From Octopus vulgaris (Eukaryota): a DNA stretch of 64,000 bases. The translations under genes were made by a program, and so were the position numbers. The notes under the pieces were generated by a model that was not told where the DNA came from, searched no databases, and saw only the letters and a program-made list of their open reading frames with translations. The stretch spans positions 71,796,001-71,860,000 of the forward strand of contig OX597821.1 in NCBI GenBank assembly GCA_951406725.2, given 5' to 3'. Shown here piece by piece: positions 48,669 to 57,186 of this stretch. Position 1 is the stretch's first letter. Every line of letters starts with the position of its first letter.

Positions 48669-48776
48669 AACCCCTTATTCGCAAAATTACCGAACTTAAC
48701 TATGGTCTGTCTATAGCACTTATTCAGCATTACCTGGCACCTTTGGGTCTCAGTAACACCATTATCTCTTATATAT

Positions 48777-49009
48777 ATATTTCTTTACTACCCACAAGGG
48801 ACTAAACATAGAGGGGACAAACAAGGATAGACAAAGAGATAAAGTCGATAACATCAACCCCAGTACGAAACTGGTAATTTATTTATCGACCCCGAAAGGA
48901 TGAAAGGCAAAGTCGACCTCGGCGGAATTTGAACTCAGAACGTAAAGACAGACGAAATATCGCTAAACATTTCGCCCGGCGTGCTAACGCTTCTGCCAGC
49001 TTACCGCCG
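48777..49009 (-). mobile_element. SINE family A (form ending GTAGTAAAGAAATA)
   Basis: Reverse complement of the head plus one unit. Confidence 0.9.
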
Positions 49010-49163: not shown

Positions 49164-49202
49164 GTATACATACATATATATATACATACATATCTATACA
49201 TA

Positions 49203-50260
49203 TAAATAATGAGGGAGATAAATTGAATATTAATTTAATTAATATCAATTTAAAACCATTAGCCTAGCATACAAAAATCTGAAAAATCAGAGAAAATTCC
49301 AATACATGTGTATATTTTAAGAGCTAAAAACCACGATGTGGACAGCCATATGCTAGAAATAGATCACCCACGATCAAACTACAAAGAAAGAATGTTCTCT
49401 AGAGAAAATTCAGCGGACACCAGAACAATAGGCGGGCAAGGCAGTTGAAAATTATATAAAAAATCAAGAATTAATCGCAGGAGTGGCTGTGTGGTAAGTA
49501 GCTTGCTAACCAACCACATGGTTCCGGGTTCAGTCCCACTGCGTGGCATCTTGGGCAAGTGTCTTCTGCTATAGCCCCGGGCCGACCAATGCCTTGTGGG
49601 TGGATTTGGTAGACGGAAACTGAAGGAAGCCTGTCGTATATATGTATATATATATATATGTGTGTTTGTGTATCTGTGTTTGTCCCCCTAGCATTGCTTG
49701 ACAACCGATGCTGGTGTGCTTACGTCCCCGTCACTTAGCGGTTCGGCAAAAGAGACCGATAGAATAAGTACTGGGCTTACAAAGAATAAGTCCCGGGGTC
49801 GATTTGCTCGACTAAAGGCGGTACTCCAGCATGGCCGCAGTCAAATGGCTGAAACAAGTAAAAGAGAGAGTAAAGAGTATACCGGTTTCGACTATTAACG
49901 AATAAATCACTTACGTAATCCTTCGTCCGTAGGACTCATCAGTACGATCGTTCCAAAAGCAATATAATTTGTAAAACTAACCACCGGTTTTCTGTATAAA
50001 ACAGATACGTACTTAGTTCTAACTATTACATTGGGGTTAATTTCAAATGTCTGAGTTCTGGCGCGCTAAATTCCGGAAACAAAAACTGCAGCAAATAATT
50101 TACTGCAGTTAATGCTGCATATTAGAGAACATATTTATTTTAACATTTAAATAATGAGGGAGATAAATTGAATATTAATTTAATTAATATCAATTTAAAA
50201 CCAATAGCCTAGCATACAAAAATCTGAAAAATCAGAGAAAATTCCAATACATGTGTATAT
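49203..50260 (-). mobile_element. hammerhead-containing partial tandem repeat (Penelope pLTR/retrozyme-like)
   Basis: 113-bp direct repeats at 49203-49315 and 50148-50260 (1 mismatch); internal hammerhead motif; SINE B insertion. Confidence 0.75.
49477..49876 (+). mobile_element. SINE family B, full length, young-looking
   Basis: Head GCAGGAGTGGCTGTGTGGTAAG, B-box-like GGTTCAGTCCC, internal TA/TG tract, tail GCATGGCCGCAGTCAAATGGCTGAAACAAGTAAAAG. Confidence 0.95.
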
Positions 50261-50279
50261 ATACATATGTATTTTTGTA

Positions 50280-50369
50280 ATGAAGTACGATTGTTTCATG
50301 CTTCTCCATTTAATTGAACAATGAAAATATTACATCAGTTTTAAAATGTAGAGCAATCTTCAGCTCCAT
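50280..50369 (-). ncRNA. type I hammerhead ribozyme-like motif
   Basis: AUGGAG-CUGAAGA-(stem II)-GAAAC-AAUC-GUA-CUUCAU on the minus strand. Confidence 0.7.
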
Positions 50370-50497
50370 AAAAACATAGAATTTAGTTAAATTCAAAGGA
50401 TTCATTTGTATAGTTATTCTATTAACCAAAATCACAAAGAGGATAAGTAGATAGACAAAGGACATGTTTCTTCAACAATATCATAGTAGTAACTTTT

Positions 50498-50587
50498 ATG
50501 CAGCTGAAGATTGCTCTACATTTTAAAACTGATGTAATATTTGCATTGTTCAATTAAATGGAGTCGCATGAAACGATTGTACTGCAT
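50498..50587 (+). ncRNA. type I hammerhead ribozyme-like motif
   Basis: AUGCAG-CUGAAGA-(stem II)-GAAAC-GAUU-GUA-CUGCAU; perfect 6-bp stem I and complete core. Confidence 0.75.
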
Positions 50588-51221
50588 TACCTCTGGATAT
50601 CCTTGTTGCTTATTTTGATTGTAATCACCCCGTTTTGAATTATATGGATAATACCATACTAAATTCTGGTACCTTTAACTTAAGTACCATATTCAACTGA
50701 ATATATATATATATACATATGGTATGAACACACACACACAAATGTACGCGTGTATGTATGCATCGTTCTTTTTGTTCGAAACACATTTTGTAGTTGTTGA
50801 GTAGATGAACATATTAATATTAAGATAAACATTAATCAATGATTTCTTCGTGTTTATTTTTCATTCATTTCAAGAGAGTGCGAAGGAAGGAGCTTTCATT
50901 TTACAATATTGATTGTTTTGTTAATATAAAACATGACTAGCAACAACACCCTCGGTGATTTTATCTGTTTTTGTATTAGGACTTCCCATATTTGCTTACA
51001 AGAAGCGCTGAGTAAATGGGTGACTTGTCAAATAGTTTGTGTCGAATATTTATTTCATCGAGCAACAAAATGTCGTCAGTGGAAAATCGACCTTCAGCTC
51101 TACGGTGTTGTTTGCTGGTTCTTCGCACTATGAAAATAAAGAAGACGAAGAAAAAGAGAATCACATCAATAAAACTAAATGTAACTTATGGCAGTGTGTT
51201 TATAATATTCATTACAGGCGT

Positions 51222-51803
51222 AAGGGGTGAGCTGGCAGAACCGTTAGCACGCCGTGAGAAATGCGTAGCCGTATTTCGTTTGTCTTTACGTTCTGAGTTT
51301 AAATTCCGCCGATATCGACTTTGCCTTTCATCCTTTCGGGGTCGATAAATTAACCACCAATTACGCACTGGGGTCGATATAATCGACTTAATCCATTTGT
51401 CTGTCCTTGTTTGTCCTCTCTGTGTTTAGCCCCTTGTGGGTAGTAAAGAAACAGGTATTTCGTCTGCCGCTACGTTCTTAGTTCAAATTCCGCCGAGGTC
51501 GACTTTGCCTTTCATCCTTTCGGGGTCGATAAAATAAGCACCAGTTACGCATTGGGGTCGATATAATCGACTCAATCCGTTTGTCTGTCGTTGTTTGCCC
51601 TCTCTGTGTGTAGCCCTTTGTGGGTAGTAAAGAAATAGGTATTTCGTCTGTCGCTATGTTCTGAGTTCAAATTCCATCAATGTCGACTTTGCTTTTCATC
51701 CTTTCGAGATCGATAAATTAAGTACCAGTTACGTACTGGTGTTGATCTAACCGACTGGCCCCTCCCCCAAAATTTCGGGCCTTGTACCTAGAGTAGAAAA
51801 GAT
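51222..51803 (+). mobile_element. SINE family A, 3-unit form, with 16-bp TSD
   Basis: Units start at 51271, 51455 and 51639 (period 184); TSD TATTCATTA(C/A)AGGCGT at 51206-51221 and 51804-51819. Confidence 0.9.
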
Positions 51804-51814
51804 TATTCATTAAA

Positions 51815-52030
51815 GGCGTGAGCTGGTAGAATTGTTAGTGCGTCGGACAAAAATCCTTGGAGATATTTCTTCTTCCGGATTTACAGTCTGAGTGTTCATA
51901 TTCCGCCGAGGTCGCCTTTGCTTTTCATTCTTTTGATGTCGATAAAATAATTATCAGATAAACACCTGCGTCGATGTAATTGATTTACCTGTCCCATAAA
52001 ATATCAGGTGTTTTACCTTTTGTAGAAAGA
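51815..52030 (+). mobile_element. older SINE family A copy
   Basis: GGCGTGAGCTGGTAGAA..TTCCGCCGAGGTCGCCTTTGCTTTTCATTC. Confidence 0.85.
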
Positions 52031-54656: not shown

Positions 54657-57186
54657 ATCCTTAATCCTTAAATCCTTAAAAATGTTTTAGCCCGAAGGCC
54701 GCGGCCATGCTGGGGCACCACCGCTGAATGAGCTACACTAGTTTGTGAATCCACCTCTGATACGTGGCACTTGATCAACAAGGGAGTTCGATGCTGCTGC
54801 CCGCATCCGCGTCTCCTGTCGTGAGGTAGGTTCATCTGGGACCCCCGACAAGAAGAGATCCAGTTTAGTTTTAAAGAAACCCACATCCGCACCATGTAAG
54901 TCTCTCAGGCATTTAGGGAGGATGTTAAAGAGCTGTGGTCCTCTGAAACCCAAGCTGTTGCAGTATCTGGACCTGTATTTTGATGGTGATGTTGGAATCC
55001 TTGGCACCACGCAGCGGCGCCCCGTTCTGCGGTTGGAGTAACTTTGAATCCCAAAGTTTGGGACAAGACCCTCCAGGATTTTCCAGATGTATATCACTGC
55101 ATATCTCTCCCGCCTCCGCTCTAGGGAGAAGAGGTTTAATACCTTCAGTCTTTCCCAGTAGCTGATATTTTGCATTGAGACGATTTTCTTTGTGTAGCTT
55201 CTCTGAATTGCTTCGAGTTCTGCTGTTTGTTTTATATTGTGTGGTGACCAAAGTTAGGAGCAGTAGTCCAAGCGGCTGAGGACGAATGTTTTCCATAGGA
55301 CCATCAGTGTCTCCTTCTCTCTTGTTCTGAAAGTTCGGAGAATCCATCCAGCTAGCCGTCTGCATTTTATCACCAGATTAGCAATATGCATTTGGAAAGA
55401 TGCATCATTGCTCATGTCAATGCCCAGGTCACGCACTGATTTTGACTCAGGGATTGCAATTCTTCCTGGGCCAGTGTATCCAGTCTTCACGTCATTTACC
55501 TTTGTGTGCCAGTAGCGCAGGGCCTGGAACTTACCTGCATTAAACTGCATGTTGTTGTCCTCAGCCCACCTGTATATTGTGCCCAGCTCATGTTGCAGAT
55601 GCGCAATATTTTCAGGGTTTTGTATTGTGTGGGAGACTTTTGTGTCATCTGCATAGCTAGCAAGGGTGGTCATCGTAGCAACTGAAGGCATGTCTGAAAG
55701 GGCCACTATGAACATCAGTGGCCCCAAGACAGTGCCCTGTGGGACACCGCTTGTTATTTGCGTTTCCTTGGAGGTGGCTCCATTGCTCACAACTGCCTGT
55801 TTTCTGTCTTTTAGGAAGTTGTGCAGCCACTCTCCAGGTTTCCCGCCTATGCTGAGACCACGCAGTTTGTGACAGATCATACCATGGTCGACTTTATCAA
55901 AGGCTTTTGCAAAGTCGAGATATATTACATCCACATTTGAGCCATTTAGTAGCTGTTTCAACACCCAGTCATAGTGTTGCTGGAGCTGTGTTAGGCAGCC
56001 TCTACCTAACACAGCAGCTGTGTTAGGCAGCCTCGAAATCCATGCTGGGTGTCAGACAGCAAGTCATTTTCTTCAAGGAACATGATTAGTTTCTTACGGA
56101 CTATTCGTTCCATGACTTTGCTGATGTGTGAGGTCAGAGAGATAGGCCTATAATTTTTAGCATCTGCTCTGCTACCTCCCTTATGGATAGGGCATATTAC
56201 CCCCTCTTTCAATTTGACTGGGAGCTTACCACTTGCAAGAAAGCTCTGAAAAGAAGCTGTAGCGGTTTTGCAAGGGCTCGTTTGCACGATTTGAGAAGGA
56301 TCGCTGGGAATCCATCAGGTCCAGCAGCTGAGTTTGTGTCAATCTCATCAATGGCTAGTGTGATATCATCATCTTCGATGTTGATGTACTCAATTTTTGT
56401 CTCTTTGGCCGTAGGTAAAGTGGCAAAGAATTCTTCTGGGTTGTTTACTTGCCTGTGTCCTAGAGGTGTAGTGAACACACTTTGGAACTGTTCGTTCGGT
56501 ATTTCACTTATCCTCGTGGGATTTCCTGTGAGAGAGCCATCTTTTTGGAAGAGAGGTCCTATTCTCTGGTGCACTGTGGCTGTCTCTTTGGCAAACTTAA
56601 AGAAAGCTTTAGGGTTTGATTTTATATTTTCTATTACCCAAGCTTCTTTATCTGCTCTCTCCTTTTCATGGGACTGATGTAGACTTTTCTCAGTTTCCAT
56701 TAGCATTCTTTCGAGCTGAGACTTCTCACCACTTTTGGTGTGCTTGCTCAGGCGGTTTGCAATCCTTGTCCGTCGTCTCATAAGAATCCTCCTTTCTCTA
56801 TGGATCCTGCTTTTGTTCTTGTGTGTACTGGCCCTGCACACTGGGACATATTTGTCACATATGGCTTGTATTATGGACATGAAGTGTTTGTGTTTCATGT
56901 TTATGTCCGGTGTGGAGAGACATTCAGGCCAATCCTGTTTCAGGATCTCTTTCTCAATCAACTTCCAGTTGGCTTTATGAAAGTTTAAGTTGGAGAGATG
57001 GTGGGTGCTTCGTATAGGCTGTGTGTCTGCGGGGGCTTTTGTTCCATACATAGACAGCTCTATTATGTTGTGATCCGAGATCATTGTCGGCATCACATTA
57101 ACATTATGGATAATATCCATATTGTTTGTGAAGCAGAGATCCAGTATATTATCAGCCCTTGTTGGTTGCAGAACTATTTGCTCAAT
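54657..57186 (-). mobile_element. CR1-group LINE (APE-RT ORF2), 5'-truncated, frameshifted
   Basis: EN end [15 protein letters not shown]; RT motifs YRPISLTS, YLDFAKAFDKV, GVPQGTVLGP, YADDTK; C-terminal LERRRERY; stop at 54738; short 3' UTR and (TTAAGGA)n tail; TA-rich tracts on both sides. Confidence 0.95.

Follow-up and report, generated by a model that had tools for sequence, protein, structure and literature searches.

Why should the two arms of a DNA palindrome coincide almost exactly with a hammerhead ribozyme, in such a way that a transcript of either strand would contain one? The palindrome in question lies in a stretch of 64,000 nucleotides of the Octopus vulgaris genome (assembly GCA_951406725.2, contig OX597821.1, positions 71,796,001 to 71,860,000 of the forward strand), hereafter called 'the window', whose own numbering is used below. 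We find it very probable that the palindrome consists of two 3' ends of a single Hydra-clade Penelope-like element (PLE) family of high copy number, both truncated at the 5' side and placed head to head beside a TA repeat, and that it is likely to have arisen in a single insertion and to be decaying now, with no function of its own.

Anatomy of the palindrome

The inverted arms (50277-50373 and 50494-50590) are 97 nt long each, with 120 nt between them, and 90 of the 97 positions are complementary. Each arm is a type I hammerhead, and both are oriented outward. An earlier note on this DNA, which had described an inverted repeat of about 97 bp matching a hammerhead on either strand, is borne out by these values. 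The features of the locus are as follows.

49184..50260, minus strand: family B hammerhead repeat, an unrelated flank; core 49942-49936, insert of 46 nt; interrupted by a SINE-like repeat
50277..50494, minus strand: minus copy, the inverted partner; 5'-truncated 3' end of the family, comprising the hammerhead and about 120 nt on its upstream side, without 3' tail
50277..50373, minus strand: left arm; type I hammerhead with 6 substitutions relative to the family majority; predicted cut after 50286
50374..50493, minus strand: spacer of 120 nt; family sequence upstream of the hammerhead, belonging to the minus copy
50494..50708, plus strand: plus copy; another 5'-truncated 3' end from this family, with the hammerhead and a 118-nt 3' extension, (TA)n at its end
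50494..50590, plus strand: right arm; type I hammerhead with 1 substitution relative to the majority; predicted cut after 50581
50701..50718, no strand: (TA)n tract; 3' end of the plus copy and likely target

In the plus hammerhead, the first strand of stem I (AUGCAG, 50498-50503) leads into CUGAAGA (50504-50510) and an insert of 59 nt with a U...U opening (50511-50569); GAAAC-GAUU-GUA (50570-50581, with GAAA at 50570-50573) and the second strand of stem I (CUGCAU, 50582-50587) complete it. The minus hammerhead has stem I AUGGAG/CUUCAU and the loop AAUC. These stems, and the CUGAAGA, GAAAC and GUA cores, all read as the earlier note had given them. The defining type I elements, CUGANGA, GAAA and NUH with stems I and III, were found in both arms and in the family majority. 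A covariance model search of the window scored the two arms and no other site, while an Rfam scan of the window gave no family at gathering score (0 hits), and neither arm folded better than its shuffles (z = -0.9 and -1.2).

The plus copy matches a family unit at another locus (L033) with 96% identity over 215 nt, and the minus copy matches the same unit with 93% identity over 218 nt, many genomic copies being at 92 to 94%. The arms end where the hammerheads end because the plus copy happens to be 5'-truncated there, and because the minus copy is short at its 3' end; at other twin loci, the arms extend differently relative to the hammerhead. The spacer has 4 differences from the majority of 72 matches. 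The substitutions of the left arm include a private double change in stem I (50366 and 50283) and a CpG decay in the palindrome of stem III.

The repeat family and its parent element

The repeat family has at least 1,415 copies: an exact 21-nt hammerhead motif gave 1,415 matches in the genome, and its reversed control gave 0. A search of the octopus's own genome returned 2,603 first-look candidates, 40 of which were scored. Most copies carry a single hammerhead, a variable 5' truncation point and (TA)n at the 3' end. The 3' ends adjoin (TA)n in the window and at most loci inspected, in keeping with an insertion preference for (TA)n.

Sixty-four arms, the best-scoring matches from 87 loci with partial arms dropped, were compared, and 51 were used in the alignment (A1). 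The family majority has a perfect core, a 6-bp stem I, a UGC/GCA stem II base and a perfect palindrome, its stem III being ACGAUCGU (58 of 64 arms have the C, and 57 of 64 the G). This supports ACGAUCGU, an 8-nt palindrome, as the probable ancestral stem III. The majority also bears out the earlier reading of the window's loops, GAUU and AAUC, as one CpG decay each from a palindrome.

Walking upstream from the hammerhead, an AT-rich 3' region of 1.7 to 1.9 kb was crossed, and then a decayed reading frame was reached. Three loci (L085, L086 and L087) have an endonuclease remnant, the 1.7 to 1.9 kb 3' region, the hammerhead and the tail, in that order, and loci L084 to L087 hold decayed fragments ordered thumb, linker, endonuclease. 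Copies L105 to L116, which are tied to the family by their 81 to 92% DNA identity to L084 and not each by its own hammerhead, extend into the reverse transcriptase (RT) core, where ADKTG, FIQFDI, MGSSDSAEV and LYRDD were read in related copies. From such decayed fragments, an RT followed by a C-terminal GIY-YIG in a single frame, as in PLEs of the EN+ type, could be recognised. The Pfam match to GIY-YIG was weak (E = 0.011, below the cut-off), and the RT fragment matched nothing in the Pfam RT search or among solved structures in the PDB. A protein database search restricted to the longer-protein class gave nothing at E 0.001, which is weak evidence. Among the copies examined, none was an intact full-length element or held an intact frame. 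A LINE or mitochondrial source of the AT-rich upstream sequence was considered and rejected, no such frame being found with translation tables 1 and 5.

The marks of the Hydra clade given by Craig et al. 2021 (PMC8557442) are DKT, CxCX5C, CxxC/CxH and (TA)n. DKT, a modified DKG, is present as ADKTG in L114 and L116 and as ANKTG in L115; the CxCX5C linker reads CNCRTKSHC or CNCRTRSHC (L065, L066, L069, L070 and L071); and CxxC/CxH, around a conserved E and N, reads CELC..E...N...CIH (L068, L071, L073 and L077). By inspection, a CCHH with two cysteines within the GIY-YIG core was absent. For the N-terminal RWK motif, RRVRWI was found in one diverged copy (L115), other pattern matches lying outside the frame. 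L087 holds another Hydra-like family, with which fragments of the palindrome's family also align (E = 1e-17, 5e-13 and 6e-20). Judged on these motifs, and not on an RT tree, the family appears to fit the Hydra clade of PLEs. Neptune and Nematis were rejected as parent clades: their CX2-5CxxC linker and CCHH were not seen, and the linker is CxCX5C.

With Penelope-5_HM, Penelope-13_HM and Hydra-1_Obim, as described in PMC8557442, the family shares the C-terminal GIY-YIG as well as the four marks, together with a 3' hammerhead opening CUGANGA-U-UGC...GCA-U-GAA. It differs from the Hydra-clade elements described there in its stem III, a perfect 8-nt palindrome, and in its tail, which is about 90 to 105 nt long compared to 30 to 40. 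The length of less than 3 kb, typical of the clade although not defining, does not hold either, since the RT-EN frame contains an Asn-rich insertion and is followed by a 3' region of about 1.9 kb. The hammerhead of Hydra-1_Obim differs from that of the octopus family. A motif search of the supplement of PMC8557442, in the part covered, did not find the family's hammerhead, and a literature search covering sources other than subscription papers and Repbase found no octopus report of the family. As far as this part of the supplement goes, the family adds to those listed by the clade-defining paper.

Two further observations were made on these frames. In L071 and L085 (L085:5486-6322), a long Asn/Ser-rich low-complexity insertion lies between the thumb and the endonuclease linker. 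A near-complete decayed RT and GIY-YIG frame of another Hydra-like family is found at L087:1200-3130, and a copy of the palindrome's family follows about 1.8 kb downstream; by eye, the frame resembles Hydra-1_Obim.

Stem II and ribozyme activity

The earlier note had also pointed to a stem II of 59 nt that opens with a non-canonical U-U. Both are present, but the U-U is not odd. It is family-wide, with U at position 10.1 in 64 of 64 arms and at 11.1 in 62 of 64, so that a paired 10.1-11.1 closing a short stem II is not what characterises these arms. It is also the usual state in the Hydra clade: 14 of 25 published families in the PMC8557442 supplement open with U...U, 8 of them with UGC/GCA (counted by eye). 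Natural hammerheads in which U-U is tolerated are described by Perreault et al. 2011 (PMC3088659). The minimal dimer-dependent hammerheads of metazoan PLEs (Cervera and De la Pena 2014, PMC4209133) are likewise of type I, located in pLTRs, with a short palindromic helix III and truncated copies genome-wide; they differ in having a helix II of 6 to 8 bp and a conserved G10.1-C11.1, in contrast to the U-U and 59-nt insert of the octopus family.

What stands out is the long stem II insert, which appears to be the palindrome's sole departure from the published Hydra hammerhead pattern (59 nt compared to 12 to 26 nt in the Hydra-clade hammerheads of PMC8557442). Three other families among the fetched loci have inserts of 46, 46 and 56 nt with intact cores. 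A long stem II (about 50 nt), flagged as non-canonical, is also described in the PMC8557442 supplement for two PLEs of the PLE-X1 type in spike mosses; unlike the octopus family, these are endonuclease-less plant elements that target 28S rRNA genes, and their sequence is unrelated. As side observations, one unrelated hammerhead on the minus strand of L065 (near 2988 from the end) has a 46-nt insert, a U-U opening and the palindromic stem III ACAAUUGU, and another on the minus strand of L085 (near 9299) has a 56-nt insert and the palindromic stem III ACGCGCGU.

In the parent element, the hammerhead would be the pLTR ribozyme, predicted to require a partner copy through the 8-nt palindromic stem III, perhaps together with the element's protein. 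The predicted dimer energy through ACGAUCGU is -10.0 kcal/mol, and that of the window's two versions is -5.8 and +0.3 kcal/mol; neither palindrome of the window is any longer perfect for dimerisation. The two copies of the window, being on opposite strands, cannot be partners within one transcript.

There is a real chance, somewhat short of even, that the motif is inactive in the family now, the 59-nt insert having disabled the ribozyme and the hammerhead-like sequence merely being carried along. The hammerhead fold lies 3 to 7 kcal/mol above the minimum-energy fold, and the stem II pairs adjacent to the core have a probability of at most 0.11. The fold of the insert is not significant in the palindrome's family (z = -1.2 and -1.5), being modest in the neighbouring family (z = -2.1). 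Moreover, copies extend across the cut site. Against inactivity, the family majority retains a perfect core, stem I, UGC/GCA base and palindrome, and the three other families combine comparably long inserts with intact cores. As to the uncut copies, the Poseidon element of Anolis likewise uses uncut RNA even though its ribozyme is active with protein (PMC11167929). This alternative concerns activity only, and is therefore compatible with an origin by head-to-head insertion. Conversely, it is rather unlikely that stem II, in several PLE families of this genome, has grown into a working domain of 46 to 59 nt that is not inert, for instance a grip for the element's protein in a protein-dependent cleavage. 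From the long stem II, present in four unrelated families among the fetched loci, one could learn how far a dimer-type hammerhead can accommodate additional structure, and whether this structure binds the element's protein.

The head-to-head layout and its decay

Family sequence was present on both strands at 29 of the 66 fetched loci, and complete hammerheads on both at 14, in a set that is enriched for such loci by the query. Among unselected matches, a count by eye gave 4 head-to-head pairs within 1 kb in the first 100 of the 1,415. The junctions of twin loci vary. Twelve of the 14 twin loci pair an arm ending at 121 to 132 with one ending at 215 to 233 (arm coordinates), the exceptions being the window (97 and 215), whose minus arm stops short of the usual 121 to 132, and one tail-to-tail locus. 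There are then two preferred 3' end points about 90 to 105 nt apart, one per arm. Truncation at the 5' end, an inverted 5' segment and a one-sided tail, all traits of PLEs, are found together, and this supports the proposal, made in the earlier note, of a pLTR with an inverted 5' segment, the pLTR end being Penelope-like and the inverted segment 5'-truncated.

The layout is already in print, as inverted truncated ends in PMC8557442 and as twin hammerheads on opposite strands in PMC4209133, where dual motifs lie 100 to 700 bp apart. An inverted truncated copy with a one-sided tail has been published for Penelope-like elements, and Penelope-13_HM, in the supplement of PMC8557442, has such an inverted truncated copy with hammerheads on both strands. 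A possible route to such pairs is offered by analogy with Poseidon of Anolis (Frangieh et al. 2024, PMC11167929), an element of another clade that has two 3' end points leading to a one-sided tail, AT-rich targets and copies whose RNA template had not been cut at the hammerhead; the mechanism was shown in vitro there, and its extension to the octopus family is by inference. The element's enzyme would nick both strands of an AT-rich target, and two internal sites, both downstream of a hammerhead that has remained uncut, would serve as starting points of reverse transcription. The two cDNAs would stop early and be joined at their truncated ends, which would give a head-to-head pair. That copies span the hammerhead cut site fits an uncut template. 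The locus of the window is one among the head-to-head remains of one family, which are estimated to number dozens to hundreds, and as a locus matters little.

It is very improbable that the twin cassette is itself the mobile unit, fold-back or MITE-like, spreading as a whole. One locus (L002, G000:C1:28791051) does have the window's junction to within one T, and such near identity is not obviously predicted by independent formation. However, only 2 loci of the genome match this junction, which largely refutes an amplified unit; the two differ in their subfamily letters at the junction and carry the long tail on opposite arms, and the other twin loci have different junctions. We also observed that ATATTTTT is common to L002 and the window, adjoining both break points. 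At L006, L045, L050 and L055, both arms share rare variants, pointing to one template, and at L002 and L008 subfamily sites distinguish the two arms, which hints at either a second template or conversion at a later time. Given L002 and L008, a single template for the arms of a twin is not certain.

The stem I of the minus arm (AUGGAG/CUUCAU) had been taken as covarying, its two changes keeping the pairing (C-G to G-U). The comparison across genomic copies did not uphold this: no covariation beyond chance was seen, the power being low in copies that are about 95% identical. The change occurs in 1 of 64 arms, the minus arm itself, and in another arm the C-to-G change stands alone. When the 48 distinct rows were shuffled 500 times, the observed count of one double change was reached in 172 shuffles, and a simulation of random substitution gave 0.5 double-change arms expected among 64. 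The chance for the minus arm's stem I alone is 0.9%, for an arm picked post hoc. Stem I pairs were altered in 24 cases, and pairing was lost in 19 of these and retained in 5. Core sites were not significantly better preserved, their rate of change being 1.4% compared to 2.5% at other sites (P = 0.11); the rate at CpG sites was 9.6%. Spacer, tail and arms taken together diverge by about 3 to 4% from the majority, as in other copies. As far as these data reach, the changes in the arms are neutral decay.

There remains the proposal that the antisense arm sequesters the ribozyme as a built-in or ADAR-tunable switch. Sequestration stands in silico: in a read-through RNA of either direction, a duplex of about -143 kcal/mol is predicted, and stem I pairing falls to 0. 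Palindromic repeats are strong ADAR targets, few animals are as hyper-edited as the octopus (PMC5625713), and any transcripts of such palindromes would naturally serve as double-stranded RNA and as substrates for editing. A long duplex and suitability as an ADAR substrate follow from any inverted repeat, and the switch itself is unsupported, because head-to-head pairs arise repeatedly as by-products of insertion and their junctions vary, both palindromes are damaged, and no sign of selection was found when divergence, core retention and junctions were compared across copies. Editing also turns A to I inside the motif, and would tend to damage its A-rich core. That a selected regulatory cassette masks the ribozyme in a host transcript until editing releases it is barely credible, in spite of a plus arm with 1 change in 97 nt. 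A scan of 12 of the window's 65 frames showed no host-gene domain.

The palindrome's insertion landed at the end of the family B repeat (49184-50260), a partial tandem whose segment 49184-49315 is repeated at 50129-50260. Family B has 1,068 first-look candidates, stem I AUCGUA/UACGAU and the palindrome ACCGGU; its stem II base changes from GUC/GAC to GCC/GGC in some copies, with 2 of 16 rows fully compensated and several half-changed. The SINE-like repeat that splits it (49477-49879) interrupts its stem I, a few bases from the predicted cleavage site. Tandem SINE-like units of 184 nt occupy 51226-52028, with an inverted copy at 48773-49005. A frame of 264 aa on the minus strand (55254-56051) matches Pfam RVT_1 (E = 1e-18), and is probably a LINE fragment unrelated to the palindrome.
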